A DNA stretch of 22,479 nucleotides from Promethearchaeota archaeon (GTDB lineage: Archaea; Asgardarchaeota; Lokiarchaeia; Sigyniarchaeales; SOKP01): assembly GCA_016840165.1 (NCBI GenBank), contig JAEOSU010000016.1, forward strand, positions 1 to 22,479, written 5' to 3'. Position numbers and translations under genes: made by a program. Below the pieces are notes generated by a model. The model was not told the origin of the DNA. It ran no database searches and saw only the letters and a list, made by a program, of their open reading frames with translations. Shown piece by piece: positions 13,133 through 22,479 of the stretch; position 1 is the first letter of the stretch, and each line of letters begins with the position of its first letter.

Positions 13133-14572
13133 ATGAATCCAGCCTTTATAAAAAATTATTCAGAATTAATTCCACCATCTCTTACTGAATCTCAATTATT
13201 GCTTAGAACGACAATTTTGAATGCTTTAGAATTGGCAATAAATTCAGTTATGCCAAAAAATCTAATGGCCAAAGCATTAAAAATAGAAAATGGGAAGCTA
13301 ATTATTCAAAATAATCAATTTTCTCTAAAGAAATTCAAAGATATATGCATAATTGGAGGGGGTAAAGCCGTAGCTCATATGACTGCATATTTGGAAAAAT
13401 TGCTCTCAAATGTCTCAGGTATTAAATATAAAGGCATAATAAATGTTCCTGAAAATTTATCTATAGATGATTTAGAATTAAGCGAATCAATACAGATTAA
13501 TTTTGCCTCTCATCCATTACCAAATGAATCTGGCGTCATTGGAGTGCATAAGATGATGGAATTGATCAATTCGAGTTCCAAAAAGAGTCTAATATTATTT
13601 TTAGTATCAGGGGGCGGTTCTGCTCTATTACCCTTACCGAGAGGAGAGATTCAACTTAAAGACCTCCAAGCAATTAACGAATTGCTTTTAGACTCTGGGG
13701 CTTCTATTCATGAAATAAACGTGATAAGAAAGCATCTTTCTGATCTGAAAGGAGGAAATTTAGCGCGAAAAATTTTTGAGGCGAATAAAGGCACCCTTAT
13801 TTCATTAATAATCTCTGACGTGGTTGGTAATAATTTAGATTCTATTGCTTCTGGACCATCGGTAGCAGACTCTTCGACCTTTAAAGATGTTTTTACAATT
13901 TTAAATAAATATACACTATTTGATAAAGTTCCGAATTCTATTCACTCCTTGGTAGAGGAGGGGCTAAATAACAAAGCATTAGAGACTCCAAAATTAGGAG
14001 ATAAGTGTTTCGATAACGTTCATAATTATCTTATAGGGAGTATAGAAACTGGAGTTCTAGCTATTAAAAATCTTTTGAAAAAAGAAGGATATACGGTCAA
14101 TTACTTCTCAGATACAATCACAGGAGAGGCAAAAGTATTTGGAGAGAGACTTTTCAATAAAAGTATAGCTGAATTCAGAAATCATCATAATTGGAGTAAA
14201 AGATATGCATTAATTGGAACCGGAGAACTCACAGTTACAATTAAAGGAAAGGGAATTGGGGGAAGAAATCAGGAGATGCTCTTAGGTTTTCTGAATAAAG
14301 CGATAGATACTAAAATTAATAATAATTTCTGTATTATAGCTGCAAACCTTGATGGCATTGAAGGAAATAGTAATGCGATGGGGGCATTAGTAGATAATGA
14401 AGTGTGCAAAAAAGCACTTGAGTTAAATCTCAATATAACTAAATACCTAAATCATAATGATTCTAATTCTGCATTTAACTTGTTAGGTACTGAAATAATT
14501 ACTGGTCCTACAGGCTGTAATGTGAATGATATAATGATTTTTCTTTATGGAAATTACTCTAAGGAGAGATAA
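13133..14572 (+). CDS. Glycerate 2-kinase (MOFRL/DUF4147 family)
   Basis: GGGKA, SHPLP, SGGGSAL, NVIRKHLSDLKGG, ISDVVG, IASGP, GGRNQE, TGPTGCNVND. Confidence 0.93.
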   Translation: MNPAFIKNYSELIPPSLTESQLLLRTTILNALELAINSVMPKNLMAKALKIENGKLIIQNNQFSLKKFKDICIIGGGKAVAHMTAYLEKLLSNVSGIKYKGIINVPENLSIDDLELSESIQINFASHPLPNESGVIGVHKMMELINSSSKKSLILFLVSGGGSALLPLPRGEIQLKDLQAINELLLDSGASIHEINVIRKHLSDLKGGNLARKIFEANKGTLISLIISDVVGNNLDSIASGPSVADSSTFKDVFTILNKYTLFDKVPNSIHSLVEEGLNNKALETPKLGDKCFDNVHNYLIGSIETGVLAIKNLLKKEGYTVNYFSDTITGEAKVFGERLFNKSIAEFRNHHNWSKRYALIGTGELTVTIKGKGIGGRNQEMLLGFLNKAIDTKINNNFCIIAANLDGIEGNSNAMGALVDNEVCKKALELNLNITKYLNHNDSNSAFNLLGTEIITGPTGCNVNDIMIFLYGNYSKER

Positions 14573-14576
14573 TTAC

Positions 14577-14789
14577 TTGAAAGATAATCGATTTGAAAAA
14601 ATTCGTATTAGAAACACAAAAGATCATTTTATCCTTACGTGCCCTGTATGTGGTTATTCATTTCGCCGAGAGATGGATCCTAAAAATAGAAAAAGTAAAT
14701 GGAACCGATGTCCGATGTGTGGTTATAAATGGAACCGTCCCGATTTCGTCGACAATAATTATAATTCTTCAGATAAAAAATTCTTATAA
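14577..14789 (+). CDS. Small zinc-ribbon protein
   Basis: CPVCGY...CPMCGY double CxxC; likely TTG start at 14577 after AAGGAG (the track gives ATG 14547, which overlaps glycerate kinase). Confidence 0.75.
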   Translation: MKDNRFEKIRIRNTKDHFILTCPVCGYSFRREMDPKNRKSKWNRCPMCGYKWNRPDFVDNNYNSSDKKFL

Positions 14790-14903: not shown

Positions 14904-17072
14904 ATGGCACGAAAGAAAGATAAGAAAAAGAAAGAGCCTAGATTTGGCTGGGGAAGCGAAGAAGTAGGTGAAGAAAAAGTAGCTGAAGGTTTAAGGCGCA
15001 CAGAAATGGATGAAGGAAAGGTGCGATTAGTTGATAGAGACATTTCAACACCTGTAATCGAGACCTATGATGCTGATACTGGAGAACTAGAAGGTTCTAT
15101 ACTCTTAAAGGATGGAAATCGGGAAGGCTTACTTGGTTTAGTAAAGATCGATGAAGCTGTGGACGTAGATTTAGATCATAATGCAAATATTGAATCAATA
15201 AATTTTACTGGAAAACTCAATGTCGAAAATCCAAGTAAGAAAGATAGAATTTGGGACATAGATATTGAGTTAAAAAATATTGAAGGCACCAATTTAGAGT
15301 CAAATGAGATTAAGATTCGGGAATTAGGTACAGATGACGATACCAATTTATATAGTGAAGATTTTTCAATTACAGGAGATGCAAAGAACCTACTTTTAAT
15401 TAAAGAATACGTAAATACTCTCCCAGATGCAGATAGTGTTTTAAACCTACGGGATATCGAAACAGATCTTATGCGCTCAAAAGATAAGTCAAGTAAAGTC
15501 GGAAAAAATGTCAAAGAAAGAAAAGTTGAAGAAACCAACGAATCTTACGATTTAGACGAGGAAGATGAGGAGGAAGAAGAAGAAGATGAGGACTTAATGA
15601 CCGACGGAGGAATTGACGCTGATGATTATTCTCTCCAATCATTTGGAATCTCCATTGACAAAGAAAATATTGTTACATTTGCTATTGCTCTCTATAGTTT
15701 ATATGATAAGCCTATTAACGATCTAAAAATAGTAAAAACAATCCCTGCGGATTTCGCTAATCCAATTATAGGGGAAACAACCGAAGGGCGTGGAGAAGTT
15801 GAGGGTAATAAAATTGTATGGAGCATTGACAAATTGGTACCTGAAACCACAGTTTTAATGAAATTTAGCTGCTCTATTATGGTGACTGACATCACTAAAA
15901 GAAGAACTGGACCAATTGAAGTGACTTACAAAGCCAGCTCTTCATTTGCAGGCGGTTTAGATATAGATAAGTATGATGCCTATACCAGGAACAAATTTTA
16001 TGTGGATACTGTTGAAAGAGATGAAGAACCGGGCGTTTGGGATTGTAAATTAGTGTTTGAAAACCCCTCTGAATTTATCCTTCAATTATTTAATGCTGAT
16101 GTCTACTCTCCGGAAGATGAATCCGAAAAGTATGTTGATATCGACCCCAAAGATGTCTCATTGTTACCAGCTGGAGCGCAATGGCATTCTAAGAAATGGA
16201 GATTTGAATCAGAGGAGTTACCGGCATTTAGAAAGAAATTGGAATTTCGTGTAATGCCTGATTTTCAGACTAATGTGAGTGGGAGCATCTCGGTATCTGA
16301 TGTTATTTTAGAAATAGCTAGTATCACTGGAGATATGTCTTACGATATCACACAAGTCCCAACCTATAAGGAACAGGATGTGGTTGCTAAACTTAAAATT
16401 ATTAACAATGGATCTGCGCCACTGAACGAAATTTCAGTTGCTCAACAATATTTCACAAATGAATTTAAACCTCCAAGTGCGAGCGAAGTGACCCTAATTT
16501 GGGATGGTGAAGAGGTAGATATAAATTCGAGTTCTGTGAATTTTGATAATAGCGTTTTCAAAATCTCTTTAACCGACTTAAGAAATTCAGATACTGGCCT
16601 GTTAATGCCGGAATCAATATTAGAATTTGAATATCCTATTCACAGTGTCAATCCAGTAAAAGAAGCTACATTTGAGTCAGATATTATCTATTTTGCGAAT
16701 ACATTTCCCTTATCTCAAGAACTTGAATTTAGACCAGAAGTACCTATTATTGAAGCCTTACATTTAAGGAGAAGGTTCAGAATAGGAAAGGAAGTAGTAC
16801 CAATTGGTGCATTAGGCAAATACCAAATCATTTTAACACTTGAAAACATTGGTACAGCACCTTTGCAGAATGTAGTGTTAATGGATAAAGTACCGGACAA
16901 CTTTGAATATGGAAGATATTCGGGCGGTAAACCTCAGATAACAGACGAAGTTGGAGAAGATACCTTGAAATGGACCATTGATTTATTGAATGCTGATGAA
17001 AAATTGGAAATCACCTATGAGATAAGCGGTACAGGAGAGTATAGTCCAAGTGATGCTCAGCTAGGATTATAG
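14904..17072 (+). CDS. Multi-beta-sandwich protein with candidate mu-homology (AP-mu/delta-COP-like) domain and C-terminal Ig/DUF11-like domains
   Basis: 722-aa ORF, clearly coding, no signal peptide or TM segment. Blocks VKIDEAVDVDLDHNANIESINFTGKL, INDLKIVKTIPADFANPIIGETTEG...KIVWSI...LMKF and GPIEVTYK...GGLDIDKYDAY resemble MHD blocks in order. The product call is by eye. Confidence 0.55.
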   Translation: MARKKDKKKKEPRFGWGSEEVGEEKVAEGLRRTEMDEGKVRLVDRDISTPVIETYDADTGELEGSILLKDGNREGLLGLVKIDEAVDVDLDHNANIESINFTGKLNVENPSKKDRIWDIDIELKNIEGTNLESNEIKIRELGTDDDTNLYSEDFSITGDAKNLLLIKEYVNTLPDADSVLNLRDIETDLMRSKDKSSKVGKNVKERKVEETNESYDLDEEDEEEEEEDEDLMTDGGIDADDYSLQSFGISIDKENIVTFAIALYSLYDKPINDLKIVKTIPADFANPIIGETTEGRGEVEGNKIVWSIDKLVPETTVLMKFSCSIMVTDITKRRTGPIEVTYKASSSFAGGLDIDKYDAYTRNKFYVDTVERDEEPGVWDCKLVFENPSEFILQLFNADVYSPEDESEKYVDIDPKDVSLLPAGAQWHSKKWRFESEELPAFRKKLEFRVMPDFQTNVSGSISVSDVILEIASITGDMSYDITQVPTYKEQDVVAKLKIINNGSAPLNEISVAQQYFTNEFKPPSASEVTLIWDGEEVDINSSSVNFDNSVFKISLTDLRNSDTGLLMPESILEFEYPIHSVNPVKEATFESDIIYFANTFPLSQELEFRPEVPIIEALHLRRRFRIGKEVVPIGALGKYQIILTLENIGTAPLQNVVLMDKVPDNFEYGRYSGGKPQITDEVGEDTLKWTIDLLNADEKLEITYEISGTGEYSPSDAQLGL

Positions 17073-17089
17073 AAAATTCAACTTACAAA

Positions 17090-17098
17090 TTTTTTTTT
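17090..17098 (+). terminator. Oligo-T tract after the 722-aa gene
   Basis: T9 run about 18 nt downstream of the stop at 17072. Confidence 0.4.
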
Positions 17099-17185
17099 AT
17101 TATATTTTTATATTTTCAAACGAATTATATAGATCTATAAGATTTTGTAAATCATTCAAATTTTAGGATTTGATAAGTATCAACT

Positions 17186-18853
17186 ATGCCTGAAAAAGAT
17201 AAGAACTTCGATCTCAACTGGATGTTTGAATGTCCTGATGCTATTTTAACATGTTCGGTATTACACTGTGGAGATCAGTCATATTTTGTGTTCGGAGGGC
17301 ATGATAAAACACTCTATCTTATGGATCAAGAATTAACCATCTTAGATTCCATTACATTTGATGGTTGGTGTCGATGCAGTTACCCTATTGACATAACTGG
17401 AGACGGTTGCGATGAAATTTTAGTGGGTGCTGGGGATGGCAATTTTTTAGTGGTTAAATTTGTAAAGGGCTTAAACAAATTAGCCGGTATTATGAATTAT
17501 AAGATTACTAAAAAAGTTTTATGTGTTACCGCTGGAGACTTCACTCGAGATGGTAATATTGAACTAATTTTAGGGAGTGAAGATAAGACTCTTAAGATCT
17601 TTGAAAATATTGAGGCTAAAGAACCGAAGTTTACTCTTTATTACGATTCTTGGGTAACAGCTTGCGCATTAGGATACTTAAAGTTATCGGAGAACAATAG
17701 TCCAATATTTGGATTATTAGTAGGTACTAAAAACGGAGATCTCCAACTAGTCCAATTTGAAAATAACCAACCGGATATTATTTGGCAGAAAAGTATTGGA
17801 GCCCAGATAAACGTGGTTGCTATCGGTGATGTTACAAATGATGGTTATCATGAAATAGTAATAGGTACCGACGATTCAAAATTAACCATCTTAAATAGTG
17901 AAGGAGAGGCTCTAAACTCAATAGAAATTGAAGAAGGGCGTCCTATTTCCATAAAATTAGATGATATCGATGGTGATAATGCAAAAGAAATCTTAGTTGG
18001 CTGTGCTGATGGCTCATTAAGAATATATCACAATCCCAAACTAAATTCATCTGATATTGAATTAAAATGGAAAACCTCAACCTCATCCTCCATAAAAATC
18101 GTCTCCTCAATGAAAGATCCAGAAAAAGGATTAGCAAGCATTCTTTATGGAGGTTATGATCGAAGTATTCGTTGCATCTCAGATTGTGAATGGGGTGAAA
18201 AACCAACCTTAGATATACCATATAACATTATAGTTTCTGAAAAGCAACCAAAAGAAAAAGAAAAGCCAGTAGAAGAATTGATAAAACTTGAGACTGTGCC
18301 TACAAACATTAGAGAATACATTTTGAAAATTTTAATCGATAAAAGAATCATTGAAGGAATTGCCAATGATTTAGTTAAAAGAGGCTATGTAAAGGAGAAA
18401 GTTGTTGAAGAATTTGAAAAAATGTTAACTCAAAAATCGGTTAATATCGAACAGAAAGAATTTCTTATATGGGACATACCAAAGGAAAAAGTAGATAAAG
18501 GCCTTGTTGTTCCTAGTAAAGAAGATATCAAGAGTAAAAAAATTACTCCAATAGTCATTGAGGGAGATATTGAAGAGAAAGGAACCACATTGATAGATGC
18601 ATTAAAGAAAGAAACAGAGGGAATTAAAAGTTCTCAATCTTCAATTAAAAATGAAAATTTAAGGTATATTATTATTGATTATCTGGAGAGAAATAATATC
18701 GTAGCTACTAAAGGGAAAATTGTGGATGATATTATAATTCTTGGCTATGATAAAAAGACTGTCAGTGATTTGATCGAAGTTATGAAGGAAGAGGGTAAAA
18801 TTTTATACTCTCGTTCTGAACCAAAAGGCTGGATGCTTAATACTGGAGAATAA
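17186..18853 (+). CDS. Cytoplasmic FG-GAP/VCBS-type beta-propeller (BBS2/ITFG2-like) with C-terminal winged-helix domain(s)
   Basis: Four DxxxDxxxEIxxG repeats (DITGDGCDEILVG, DFTRDGNIELILG, DVTNDGYHEIVIG, DIDGDNAKEILVG); no signal peptide; C-terminal IIDYLERN...TKGKIVDD...GYDKKTVSDLIEVMKEEGKILYS...GW. Confidence 0.75.
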   Translation: MPEKDKNFDLNWMFECPDAILTCSVLHCGDQSYFVFGGHDKTLYLMDQELTILDSITFDGWCRCSYPIDITGDGCDEILVGAGDGNFLVVKFVKGLNKLAGIMNYKITKKVLCVTAGDFTRDGNIELILGSEDKTLKIFENIEAKEPKFTLYYDSWVTACALGYLKLSENNSPIFGLLVGTKNGDLQLVQFENNQPDIIWQKSIGAQINVVAIGDVTNDGYHEIVIGTDDSKLTILNSEGEALNSIEIEEGRPISIKLDDIDGDNAKEILVGCADGSLRIYHNPKLNSSDIELKWKTSTSSSIKIVSSMKDPEKGLASILYGGYDRSIRCISDCEWGEKPTLDIPYNIIVSEKQPKEKEKPVEELIKLETVPTNIREYILKILIDKRIIEGIANDLVKRGYVKEKVVEEFEKMLTQKSVNIEQKEFLIWDIPKEKVDKGLVVPSKEDIKSKKITPIVIEGDIEEKGTTLIDALKKETEGIKSSQSSIKNENLRYIIIDYLERNNIVATKGKIVDDIIILGYDKKTVSDLIEVMKEEGKILYSRSEPKGWMLNTGE

Positions 18854-18864
18854 TCTATATATCA

Positions 18865-19296
18865 CTAAAAAAAACTTTTTATTTCTTCAGTAAACGGTTC
18901 GAATTGATCTAATTCTGTAAAATCCTTATTAGAAAAAGTGGTAACGAATAAACTTAAGATTGGTTCAACTTTTTCAAAAAATCTTTTAACCACTTTATCT
19001 GTATCTTTCTTTGGCTTATTGATTAAACCGTATAATATTACAGGTTCTTCGTAATTACAATCCATCGCTTTTACTTGAGCTAATTTAAAAACAAATAGAA
19101 TCTTATCAGATTCTAAATATTCTAAAGAAACGTTATTAAATGCATTAGTCGCAAATGAATTTATCGCAGATATAAATGCTCCTCGCAAATCTTTACTTTT
19201 TTCTTGGATCTCTTTGATAGTTGATAACTTTTTGAATTTATGTTTAACTAGCACAAATCCCCTAAAAACAATCCCTAACTCAAATAAGTCTTTCAT
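18865..19296 (-). CDS. Standalone longin-domain protein
   Basis: Longin-type topology: ELGIVFRGFVLV beta hairpin, DLRGAFISAINSFA helix, strands, terminal FEPFTEEIKSFF helix. ATG 19296 preferred over the track start at 19329. Confidence 0.7.
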   Translation of the reverse strand: MKDLFELGIVFRGFVLVKHKFKKLSTIKEIQEKSKDLRGAFISAINSFATNAFNNVSLEYLESDKILFVFKLAQVKAMDCNYEEPVILYGLINKPKKDTDKVVKRFFEKVEPILSLFVTTFSNKDFTELDQFEPFTEEIKSFF

Positions 19297-19412
19297 AACG
19301 GATATTTTCACTAATTTAAATTGGCTCACGATAAAAGCTATTAAAATAAAAAAAATTCATGTATTTAATTTTACTCAAATGCAAGAATTCTTAATGGGAA
19401 TGGGAAAAAGGA

Positions 19413-20219
19413 TTATGAAGTACCTTTCAATTTCAATGAAATCGCTTTTTGAGGACATTTAGAGATACAGATTCCACATCCAAAACAAAAATCTGGTTTC
19501 AATTCTAAATGAAAATTTAAGTAGATTCGTGCTCCAAAATAGCACCATTCTGCACAATTACCGCAATTAATACAAATTTGGGTATCTGTCTCAGCTATAA
19601 AGTCACTCTTGACCATCTGTGGTGATCCATAGCGAAGGAATCTATTCAATATAATACAACAACATGGGCAACAATTGCATACAACATAATAAAAGTTAGG
19701 ATTAGGATAATAAATTAGCTGATGTATTAATCCTTCTTGATCGCATCTTTCTAATAAATCAATAACCTTTTGTTTAGAGACTTTTTTTAGATTTTTGGAT
19801 TTAAAAGGTATATCATACAAGGACTTACCTGTGCCAATATGAATACACGTTCTTAATGGATGAGTACAATTCGGTTCATTATAACGCCTTTGAGTTTCCC
19901 GGCAATAGCAATTCGCGATTCCTGTTACATTTGATCGACTTAAAATTTCAATAATTTCTTGAGAAGGCAAAAATCGAACTTCGCTTGCTATTGATGTGTT
20001 GAGGGTTATAACCCTTCCGCCCCATTTATTCTTCAAAATATAACGGTTAAGGATATAAAGTGCATTAATTTTAAATCTTTTTTCTATTATTCTAGCTAAC
20101 TCAAGCATTGTCCATTCTTGAAAGCCAAATAATGAAGTTAAAATCTTTCCAAGTAAAGGAATTCGCTCAGTAAGTTTGTCAATCAGCTTAATAAAAGGTT
20201 TATTATGTGAAAAGGACAA
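19413..20219 (-). CDS. 4Fe-4S ferredoxin-domain protein
   Basis: CYCR, CTHPLRTC and CNCCPCCC, plus two ferredoxin motifs CINCGNCAEWC and CFGCGICISKCP; TTG start. Confidence 0.88.
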   Translation of the reverse strand: MSFSHNKPFIKLIDKLTERIPLLGKILTSLFGFQEWTMLELARIIEKRFKINALYILNRYILKNKWGGRVITLNTSIASEVRFLPSQEIIEILSRSNVTGIANCYCRETQRRYNEPNCTHPLRTCIHIGTGKSLYDIPFKSKNLKKVSKQKVIDLLERCDQEGLIHQLIYYPNPNFYYVVCNCCPCCCIILNRFLRYGSPQMVKSDFIAETDTQICINCGNCAEWCYFGARIYLNFHLELKPDFCFGCGICISKCPQKAISLKLKGTS

Positions 20220-20429
20220 TTTTATGTCAGATTACTAGTTATCGATTATATGGAAAAAGTTTATAGCAAATTTATTTCTTATGCTTTTAGGAGAGAATTT
20301 AATCTAAATGACGAATTAAATCTTTATTAGGCATAATTCCATTAAATTTTAATAAGAATATTTAATAATTTTTTAAACTAATAGTATTTTATTTAACATA
20401 TCAGAAAAAACATTTATGTAAGATTTATT

Positions 20430-20675
20430 ATGAGCGACGAAGAGGAATCACGATTCTGCCCATATTGCGGAATAAAATTGACAAAACCCTACTGGGTTCA
20501 TATTCAGAAAGAGCATCCTGAAAAATATGCCCAAAAAGAAACGTGGATTAAATTATATCAAGATTATCGAAAGATAGGGATGGATCAGGAAGTTAGCATT
20601 AAAGTTATTTCTGAATTGTTTAATTCCACAGTTGAAGAGATAACCTCCTTTTTAAAAAACTCAAACAATCTTTAA
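20430..20675 (+). CDS. Small C2H2-type zinc-finger protein with C-terminal helical (HTH-like) region
   Basis: CPYC...HIQKEH; C-terminal ISELFNSTVEEITSFL. Confidence 0.75.
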   Translation: MSDEEESRFCPYCGIKLTKPYWVHIQKEHPEKYAQKETWIKLYQDYRKIGMDQEVSIKVISELFNSTVEEITSFLKNSNNL

Positions 20676-20712
20676 ATCTGTTATTAATATTAATTTTTTG
20701 TCAAAATTATTA

Positions 20713-21255
20713 TTAAATAGTTTTAAATTGTAAATATAATCGTTCAATAATTGCATTAAATGCATTAACTACTCCTTGCCCTGTTTTAGCAGATGTGAAA
20801 AAAAAATTCAGAAATTTATATTCATCTGCAAGTGTTTTAATTTTTGATTTATTTATACTATTTTCATCTATTAAATCAACTTTATTAGCAAATAAAACGA
20901 TAGGAATGTCTCCACAATTCTTTTTTATTACTTCATACCAGTTTTCTATATGTGTAAAACTCTTCTTACCAAGTGTATTTTCTTCAAGACTATATACGAT
21001 AATAGCTGCTTTACTCTCTTTATAAAAGAGTGGTTGCAGAAAATTAAAATCTTCTTGACCTGCAATGTCCCAAAACACTAATCTGATTAAATCTCCGTTA
21101 AATTTTTTATTATATTTCGAAAATTGAGCGCCAATGGTTTTCACATAATCCTTTTCAAATGTTCCTTTGGTGAATTTTTTGATTAAGGAGGTTTTACCAA
21201 CCGCTCCATCTCCAACAATAACAATTTTAAATCGATATGTCTCAGAATTTTCCAT
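20713..21255 (-). CDS. Rab-like small GTPase (Ras superfamily)
   Basis: G1 GDGAVGKTS, G2 YVKTIG, G3 WDIAGQE, G4 NKVD, G5 TSAK; no C-terminal Cys motif. Confidence 0.95.
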   Translation of the reverse strand: MENSETYRFKIVIVGDGAVGKTSLIKKFTKGTFEKDYVKTIGAQFSKYNKKFNGDLIRLVFWDIAGQEDFNFLQPLFYKESKAAIIVYSLEENTLGKKSFTHIENWYEVIKKNCGDIPIVLFANKVDLIDENSINKSKIKTLADEYKFLNFFFTSAKTGQGVVNAFNAIIERLYLQFKTI

Positions 21256-21349
21256 TAGATTTCTATAACTTAATCTAAGTGAATTTGTTTTTAATGTATG
21301 ATTAGGATTAGTTTAATATTAAAGTTTTGTGAATATGAGTGATTAAAAC

Positions 21350-22479
21350 TTATACGTATTCTATATTTTTTCCCAAAATAAAAACTTCTGTAATCAATGA
21401 TTCAAGCGATGGAATACTGTCTGATTGAATTATTTTACTTTTTTTGAGAGAGTTCTGCAAAGATTTCCAAATAAGACTCTCATTCTGTATAGATTCGAGA
21501 AATTGCTTAGTTTTACGATGAGCAAAATAAGAGTACCCTTTAAAGATATAACATATTAAAAATGGTTTAAGGGGCATCATAAGAAGAGTATATTGGCCAA
21601 AAACGGCTCTTTCAAGGCCTTCAGAAAATACCTCATTAATAATATAATTTATGGTGGTTAGGAAGCCTCCTAATATATCATCTTCAAAGGAAATATCTTC
21701 TATAAATCTTTTAGAGAACATTAGGTCCCCTCCTTCCGTTAGAATTAATAACATTACAGGTTCTTCTTTTGATGTTTCTTGAAGTTCAATCATCCGTCTT
21801 TTTACCATATTTTCCATTTGCTCATTCAAACCAGTAAGTTCAAAACGCTCAGATAGAGATAGATCTGAGAAATTTATACTCTCCCAAATCTTAGTTAATT
21901 TGAGTAATTCATCATGTTCATATGAGATTTTCATTGCTAATCGTTTCATACCATACGATTCCGCTATTTTTTGAGCTTTAGTTAAAAATCGACGAGCTGA
22001 TTTCGAATCATTCTCTATTAAGGCTAGTTTAGCTTGTAATAGGAATGTCTCACAAAAGACTAAATATGAATGTTGTTTTTCAGCAATATCCAATAACCTG
22101 GAAATATAATAATTAAGTTCATTAAGTACTTCAATATTAGTTTCTATACGATATTCCGTGAGAAGTATATCACAAAGATGGATATGAGCTTTTATAATAA
22201 TGTCAAACTGTGTTGTATCCGTTTCTATAATTTCTTTGAATAATTCTTCTGCTGTTGATTTATCTCGAATTCGAGAACTTGTTTTTAAAATTAGTGCTTT
22301 AGCGAATTTATATCCAAGATTATCTCTATCGCCTCTTTTCTGGTTAATAATGTTTTCCAAACGATGAAAATACTTTTTAGCACGCTCATTATCTCCTTGT
22401 TCAATAGTTATGTCTATTAAACCTTCAATATTACCTTCAATAGAAATAAAACCCTGAGGAATTTGCTTTAAAATATTTA
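21350..22479 (-). CDS. TPR/alpha-solenoid protein with C-terminal longin-like domain; 5' truncated by the window edge
   Basis: The frame stays open upstream of the track TTG (22360) to the window end (...EQGDNERAKKYFHRLEN...). TPR-like helices (ARRFLTKAQKIAESYG); C-terminal LLILTEGGDLMFS...DDILGGFLTTINYIINEVF longin pattern. Confidence 0.8.
   Translation of the reverse strand, partial: NILKQIPQGFISIEGNIEGLIDITIEQGDNERAKKYFHRLENIINQKRGDRDNLGYKFAKALILKTSSRIRDKSTAEELFKEIIETDTTQFDIIIKAHIHLCDILLTEYRIETNIEVLNELNYYISRLLDIAEKQHSYLVFCETFLLQAKLALIENDSKSARRFLTKAQKIAESYGMKRLAMKISYEHDELLKLTKIWESINFSDLSLSERFELTGLNEQMENMVKRRMIELQETSKEEPVMLLILTEGGDLMFSKRFIEDISFEDDILGGFLTTINYIINEVFSEGLERAVFGQYTLLMMPLKPFLICYIFKGYSYFAHRKTKQFLESIQNESLIWKSLQNSLKKSKIIQSDSIPSLESLITEVFILGKNIEYV

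Follow-up and report, generated by a model that had tools for sequence, protein, structure and literature searches.

Linked genes for a mu-homology-domain protein and an FG-GAP-type propeller protein in a Lokiarchaeia gene neighbourhood

We analysed a 22,479-bp stretch of DNA from a Promethearchaeota archaeon (GenBank assembly GCA_016840165.1, contig JAEOSU010000016.1). This stretch, hereafter the window, is the entire contig C88 of a 3.6 Mb genome that is 99.7% complete and belongs to a Lokiarchaeia-type (Promethearchaeota) Asgard archaeon. Many single trafficking domains are found in Asgard archaea, and evidence that would tell which of these domains cooperate is very scarce. A sequence-only reading of the window had drawn attention to five trafficking-like genes without signal peptides within about 7.5 kb, those for a mu-homology/immunoglobulin (Ig)-like protein, a BBS2-like propeller, a stand-alone longin, a Rab-like GTPase and a tetratricopeptide-repeat (TPR) protein with a longin tail, and had suggested that they may encode interacting parts of a simple membrane adaptor. 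The open reading frames (ORFs) of these genes, and of two others that lie among them, were confirmed, the seven together spanning positions 14904-22479. No signal-like N-terminus or membrane span was present in any of the seven proteins, and no 19-residue hydrophobic window exceeded 1.43. We found that, of the five genes, only those for the mu-homology-domain (MHD) protein and the propeller protein behave as a unit. The seven genes are as follows.

14904-17072, + strand: MHD protein, 722 aa (model and domain matches).
17186-18853, + strand: propeller protein, 555 aa (Pfam and family profile).
18865-19296, - strand: stand-alone longin, 143 aa, convergent with the propeller gene; possible extension to a GTG at 19329 (154 aa).
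19413-20219, - strand: 4Fe-4S dicluster-domain protein, 268 aa (Fer4 family matches in Pfam); a variable backbone gene.
20430-20675, + strand: zinc-ribbon protein, 81 aa (weak zinc-ribbon matches); a backbone gene.
20713-21255, - strand: Ras/Rab-like small GTPase, 180 aa (Pfam Ras); downstream gene of a two-gene cassette.
21350-22479, - strand: TPR-solenoid protein with a longin-like tail, 375 aa present, the 5' end being lost at the contig end; upstream gene of the GTPase cassette.

The counts given below come from two samples of loci. The first was phylum-wide and comprised 40 loci around homologues of the MHD protein, while the second comprised 80 species-representative loci around close homologues of the propeller protein, with counts restricted to loci that had enough sequence. 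The window's own family is referred to as f1, its sister family as f2, and genera as g1 to g7.

The 722-aa protein was modelled with AlphaFold2 from a 38-sequence alignment spanning the phylum, with a predicted local distance difference test score (pLDDT) of 82.3. Residues 73-466 of the model aligned with C-terminal domains of mu2 from AP-2 at Z 15.6-17 (210-235 of ~250 residues, root-mean-square deviation 3.4-4.2 Å); in the matches at Z 16-17, 224-228 residues aligned with a deviation of ~3.5 Å. The MHDs of mu1, mu3, mu4 and delta-COP aligned at Z 14-15, that of delta-COP at 14.4-14.9. The protein has the elongated all-beta arrangement of two beta-sandwich subdomains that makes up the MHD fold and carries Ig-like domains behind it, so that the prediction of a mu-homology/Ig protein holds. 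This match became clear only with a second structural aligner and not from a Foldseek search with the whole model, which returned mostly multi-Ig proteins (integrin legs, pilins) at TM scores below 0.2. It can be seen from the model that a disordered acidic insert, residues 201-241, splits the MHD, and that C-terminal to it lie a pilin-like Ig domain (residues ~471-620, Z ~14) and a DUF11/CARDB-like Ig domain (residues ~625-722; DUF11 28 bits in Pfam). The N-terminal stretch of residues 1-20 is polybasic, and this feature is conserved in genera g1, g2 and g7.

The corresponding signal at the level of amino-acid sequence appears weak but specific. With 22.5 bits (E 8.5e-5), the match of the Pfam family PF00928 to the 722-aa protein falls short of the gathering score, which is 31.6; PF00928 matched 21 of the 38 family members at E<=1e-3, and it reached 47.4 bits, above the gathering score, with the propeller-linked MHD orthologue of G213, a closed genome of the sister family. 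When a profile of the MHD family was compared with PDB sequences, nearly all matches were AP mu subunits, with mu3, mu1 and mu2 at the top and weak E values of 0.007-0.5; a phmmer search of PDB sequences with the single 722-aa sequence gave no match. In a tree, the MHD proteins that are linked to propellers in f1 and in f2 fell into one clade with support of 100/98.

What the protein shares with the mu subunits of AP-1 to AP-4 and with the MHD of delta-COP is the two-subdomain fold, over nearly the whole of the reference domain. It differs from AP mu in that the N-terminal longin domain of the full architecture was not found, residues 1-72 being disordered or forming short hairpins in the model and the protein having no Clat_adaptor_s match. 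It differs further in its acidic insert, in its two extra Ig-like domains (pilin-like and DUF11) and in its polybasic N-terminus. Its genomic setting is also distinct, as there are no adaptin-type solenoid genes nearby (no adaptin-like gene was seen in ~130 loci inspected) and the conserved neighbour of the MHD gene is the propeller gene. Asgard candidates for PF00928 have been listed previously, and one listed sequence visibly has the motifs of the MHD family described here; the same study states that no protein joins PF00928 with the longin domain (Eme et al., 2023; PMC10307638).

Other members of the MHD family were also encountered. The window's genome has a 317-aa paralogue consisting of the MHD only (G000:C30:280811-281764; L002:1162-2112), which scored 56 bits to the 722-aa protein, had no Pfam match and is flanked by a CxxCxxCC-domain gene on one side and by a PCMT methyltransferase gene on the other. 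In families f24 and f16, proteins of the MHD family have a short HEAT_2 repeat (28-53 bits) at the N-terminus, so that a solenoid and an MHD lie in one chain (L053:9229-11442, - strand; L055:8543-10759, + strand; L066:9231-11405, - strand). A homologue of ~595 aa that occurs phylum-wide has as its same-strand upstream neighbour a gene of 229-267 aa with an HxHxDH motif (families f9, f10, f21 and f28), and the loci in which this gene lies directly upstream are L048-L051, L056-L059, L062, L063 and L069. One such upstream gene in other Asgard classes, of 232 aa, was considered as a longin, which would have made a split mu subunit; this was ruled out, as the HxHxDH motif identifies a metallo-beta-lactamase fold.

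In the 555-aa protein, residues ~1-345 form the propeller part, of the FG-GAP-like ITFG2/BBS7/BBS2 type, and a tail of ~200 aa follows. Pfam matches were Beta-prop_BBS7 (PF23743, 81.4 bits), Itfg2 (PF15907, 49.2 bits) and BBS2_Mid (PF14783, 49.0 bits), against a cut-off of 27 for each, and the family-profile matches point to a seven-bladed FG-GAP-like propeller. Compared with PDB sequences, the family profile matched ITFG2 best (E 1.8e-13), then BBS7 (1.2e-5) and BBS2 (7e-5). The sequence-only reading was thus right about an FG-GAP/BBS-type propeller, but by these comparisons the protein appears nearest to ITFG2, with BBS7 and BBS2 next. The tail had no Pfam match and gave weak winged-helix leads with scores of at most 0.81 (Atlas).

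The likeness to ITFG2, a KICSTOR subunit, and to BBS2 and BBS7 of the BBSome lies in this propeller type. It does not appear to extend to the remainder of the chain: in BBS2, BBS7 and BBS9 the propeller precedes a coiled coil, a GAE domain, a platform and a helical tail, whereas here it precedes the ~200-aa tail with its winged-helix leads. Nor were KPTN, SZT2 or other BBS-like partners seen here. A structural cluster joining Asgard and eukaryotic BBS7/ITFG2 proteins is among the eukaryotic signature proteins (ESPs) already catalogued in a 2026 preprint (10.64898/2026.10.28.762692).

Proteins of 757-776 aa in which this type of propeller is fused, at its C-terminal side, with a Ras-like GTPase (155-160 bits to Pfam Ras) were observed in Asgard family f9 (L198:1697-3967, - strand; L199:2380-4680, + strand; L201:2204-4531, + strand). 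A match to the fusion was present in 38 of the 76 f9 genomes searched, and the fusion ties the BBS7/BBS2/ITFG2-type propeller to small GTPases.

The MHD gene lay directly upstream of the propeller gene in all 72 of the species-representative loci with enough sequence, and the adjacency was seen by coordinates in about 50 genomes. Adjacency within f1 proves little on its own, because metabolic genes that are unrelated to the pair (those for glycerate kinase, a lipoamide-dehydrogenase-like protein, POR subunits and LSM) are as syntenic there as the pair is. More telling was the arrangement in the sister family, in which the propeller orthologue is essentially single-copy. The two genes were at most 7 kb apart in seven of the eight f2 genomes tested (G213, G165, G237, G312, G306, G310 and G307), the exception being G282. 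In G312 and G306 the two genes stand tail-to-tail; in G213, G165 and G237 they do so with a single unrelated gene in between; in G310 they form a tandem, and in G307 they are separated by 5.4 kb. The surroundings in f2 are unrelated housekeeping genes (such as TFIIB, GH26, an AIR-synthase-like gene and LysE), and every neighbour other than the two genes themselves differs from those in f1.

The pair is also absent as a pair. In genera g3 and g4 and in part of g6, all in f1, the locus retains glycerate kinase, the small ORF that follows it, the longin gene and, further on, the zinc-ribbon gene, with exactly the two pair genes missing. No MHD or propeller orthologue was found elsewhere in these genomes, which are 82-100% complete. 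We conclude that, across an Asgard order, the MHD gene and the propeller gene are coupled genetically.

Several observations weigh against a joint function. Between the two genes in the window there is a T9 tract, the oligo-T tract of which the sequence-only reading had warned, together with TATA-like boxes, and the MHD and propeller genes may have separate promoters and be transcribed separately. In G138 (99% complete) the propeller gene adjoins a gene for an unrelated multi-Ig protein of at least 1936 aa with CARDB and TMEM62-Ig domains (L085:1-5808, + strand; G138:C25), and no MHD orthologue was found in that genome; the possibility that the 1936-aa protein is itself a diverged MHD protein was ruled out, as it has no similarity to the MHD protein. 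In G282 a gene of the TPR-longin family lies tail-to-tail with the propeller gene, at the place expected for the MHD gene. Finally, the well-supported f1/f2 clade of MHD proteins also includes a group from Asgard family f29 that has no propeller neighbour.

If the adjacency were an inherited gene order without functional coupling, the two proteins acting separately, then the strong general synteny within f1, the presence between them of a T tract resembling a terminator and of promoter-like boxes, and the exceptions in G138 and G282 would all be accounted for. It would not account for a proximity that has outlasted at least three rearrangements in f2 while every other neighbour changed, nor for the joint and precise absence of both genes from an otherwise conserved locus, and we consider this explanation quite improbable.

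The third gene of the cluster encodes a longin, as had been predicted. Its model (pLDDT 82) has the secondary-structure order E-E-H-E-E-E-H, which is the beta2-alpha-beta3-alpha topology of the longin domain, and its best 30 structural matches were all longin domains, at Z 8.4-11.8. Among them were synbindin (Z 11.8), the VAMP7 longin (11.0), sedlin (10.7), the mu2 N-terminus (10.3) and the roadblock-longin protein 8yqg (10.2). A Foldseek search with the model gave no match below E 1e-3; it was the wider structural search that settled the fold.

The position of the longin gene, directly downstream of the propeller gene in 76 of 78 loci, raises the question of a three-subunit complex in which MHD protein, propeller protein and longin would resemble a mu subunit split into longin and MHD, with a propeller added. 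Such an assembly would suit the fold, which fits sigma subunits, the N-terminal domains of mu subunits and the longins of TRAPP at Z 9-12, and also the lack of a longin domain in the MHD protein itself. The distribution of the gene argues otherwise. All 61 of the 61 f1 genomes had a longin orthologue, and in those without the pair it keeps the same locus (locus maps L079-L084). In f2, by comparison, an orthologue at E<=1e-5 was found in two of the 14 genomes with the pair (the better of the two at 1.8e-14), and no longin was detected near the pair there by hmmsearch at E<=10. In g4, moreover, the longin gene has a different neighbour, a gene for a 334-aa GTPase-domain protein. Since it is kept in all f1 genomes including those without the pair, and reached the threshold in only two of the 14 f2 genomes with the pair, we conclude that the longin gene is a stable backbone gene and not an obligate partner of the pair, and we regard the three-subunit complex as distinctly unlikely.

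The two genes that follow the longin gene in the window are likewise part of the backbone. The zinc-ribbon gene lay at most 6 kb from the cluster in 51 of the 64 loci, and was present also in loci without the pair, while the iron-sulphur gene lay within the same distance in 28/64; the iron-sulphur protein has 30 relatives in the window's genome.

The small GTPase carries a Ras-superfamily G domain (PF00071 Ras, 147 bits; TIGR00231, 98 bits), in agreement with its description as Rab-like. The C-terminal cysteine prenylation motif of the Rab family was not found, there being no cysteine in the last 60 residues. The TPR signal of the neighbouring protein was weak (19.5 bits, below the cut-off), and its longin-like tail gave leads only, hhalign assigning a 14% probability to the match between longin and tail; full-length relatives of the protein are 560-750 aa long.

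Neither gene is conserved beside the pair. Each lay at most 6 kb from the cluster in one of the 64 loci, and otherwise the two genes were near the cluster only in contigs ~99% identical to the window. In the nearest relative with enough sequence (85% identity), neither the GTPase gene nor the TPR-longin gene follows the zinc-ribbon gene. The window's genome contains 61 Ras-family genes, so that a randomly chosen point has a GTPase gene at most 6 kb away with a probability of ~0.18. Because of this figure, the clustering of all five genes is no more than chance expectation, a caveat that had been raised in the sequence-only reading and proved justified. Indeed, these genomes hold so many GTPase, longin and TPR genes that proximity alone means little.

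The same two genes do recur together elsewhere. At C29:48660-51084 in the window's genome there is a TPR-longin paralogue with a close GTPase paralogue directly downstream, and the combination is also present, in other genomic contexts, in g1, g2, g4 and g7, where the GTPases scored 224-320 bits. Copy number in the TPR-longin family varies from 0 to 22 per genome, 23 of 41 genomes having no match, and this patchy family includes tandem arrays and some pseudogenes. We conclude that the TPR-longin gene and the GTPase gene are a cassette of their own, one that recurs and that stands beside the MHD-propeller pair only in this species.

These results bear directly on the proposal that all five genes encode one proto-coat, in which MHD protein, propeller protein, longin, Rab-like GTPase and TPR-longin protein would make up a single membrane adaptor recruited by the GTPase. 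All five folds are of kinds found in eukaryotic coats, and the propeller-GTPase fusion of family f9 makes a general link between propellers and GTPases plausible. Against this stand the single locus of 64 for each of the GTPase and TPR-longin genes and their absence from the closest relative with enough sequence, their occurrence as a cassette of their own elsewhere in the genome and in other genera, and the ~0.18 chance of proximity with 61 GTPase genes. Conserved co-localisation across Asgard genomes, which such a module would be expected to show, was missing for three of the five genes (longin, GTPase and TPR-longin) but was found for the MHD-propeller pair, so that of the proposed module the pair survives, whereas the longin is separable and the other two genes do not belong to it. 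By the missing co-localisation the five-gene proposal is already largely refuted, and we now hold it to be very remote.

Taken together, the 7.5 kb probably consist of three independent units, of which the two-gene MHD-propeller unit most likely acts together in the cytosol. In this first unit, the MHD-Ig-Ig protein and the propeller protein would cooperate, probably as a heteromeric complex. The MHD could serve as a platform for binding peptides or lipids, with the propeller and its tail as a second binding platform, and the conserved polybasic N-terminus could hold the MHD protein on acidic membranes. The small longin, iron-sulphur and zinc-ribbon genes would constitute the second unit, backbone genes independent of the pair. 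The third would be the TPR-longin gene followed by the Rab-like GTPase gene, drawn from an expanded and patchy family, for which the likeliest role is that of a GTPase with its own regulator or effector. A complex prediction for MHD protein residues 73-722 with propeller residues 1-345, leaving out the propeller tail and the first 72 residues of the MHD protein, scored 0.00 in both runs without controls, and speaks neither for nor against binding. A search for sequencing runs found no RNA runs, those found being DNA only, from marine sediment, soil and marsh.

A more specific form of the pair's joint action is that it is a minimal two-subunit adaptor, associated with membranes through the polybasic N-terminus and selecting cargo or partners. 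In that case it would be related, as an archaeal form, to COPI and TSET in their joining of an MHD with propellers. In these coats an MHD subunit works with propeller subunits, delta-COP with alpha- and beta'-COP, and TCUP with TTRAY1 and TTRAY2. By analogy with this established arrangement, the genetic linkage of MHD and propeller seen here may be comparable. The COPI and TSET propellers are, however, of the WD40 type and fused to alpha-solenoids, and those coats also depend on large solenoid subunits together with a small longin subunit; nothing of this kind is linked to the pair here. We regard the adaptor as unlikely; if it did exist, it would be approachable in those Lokiarchaeia whose closed genomes carry the pair, as G213 and G312 of the sister family do.

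Both protein families have already been catalogued as Asgard ESPs. Literature searches on an Asgard gene pair involving a mu-homology domain or ITFG2 found no paper describing the linkage, and the pair is a moderately novel candidate complex. It unites an MHD with a BBS/ITFG2-type propeller, both of them folds employed in the coats and coat-like complexes of eukaryotes. A pair whose linkage has survived rearrangements, and whose two genes are lost together, amounts to a concrete and testable claim of partnership.

A pattern already familiar in Asgard archaea is that longin or roadblock genes adjoin genes for small GTPases; both the TPR-longin and GTPase cassette and the stand-alone longin conform to it. 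Solved Asgard examples are the Lokiarchaeal Rag-like GTPases 8yl2 and 9m28 and the roadblock-longin protein 8yqg. The cassette departs from this pattern in its probable regulator, which carries a TPR solenoid of some length and comes from a family expanded to as many as 22 copies in one genome.

A number of minor observations were made on these gene families. Tandem arrays of at least eight TPR-longin genes, spaced at 2.0-2.4 kb and some with in-frame stops, were seen at G049:C33:2424-22231 and G030:C3:20926-54147. The conserved longin gene of g4 is divergently paired with the gene for the 334-aa GTPase-domain protein, which scored 73-76 bits to the window's GTPase (L080:10548, + strand; L081:10580, + strand), and in the window's genome a longin paralogue (C3:2941-3405) lies 2 kb from a GTPase paralogue (C3:356-901). 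Upstream of the MHD gene, an 80-aa ORF for a four-cysteine zinc ribbon (14547-14789, + strand) overlaps with the glycerate kinase gene at the end of the latter; most related loci, also those without the MHD-propeller pair, keep a small ORF at this position.

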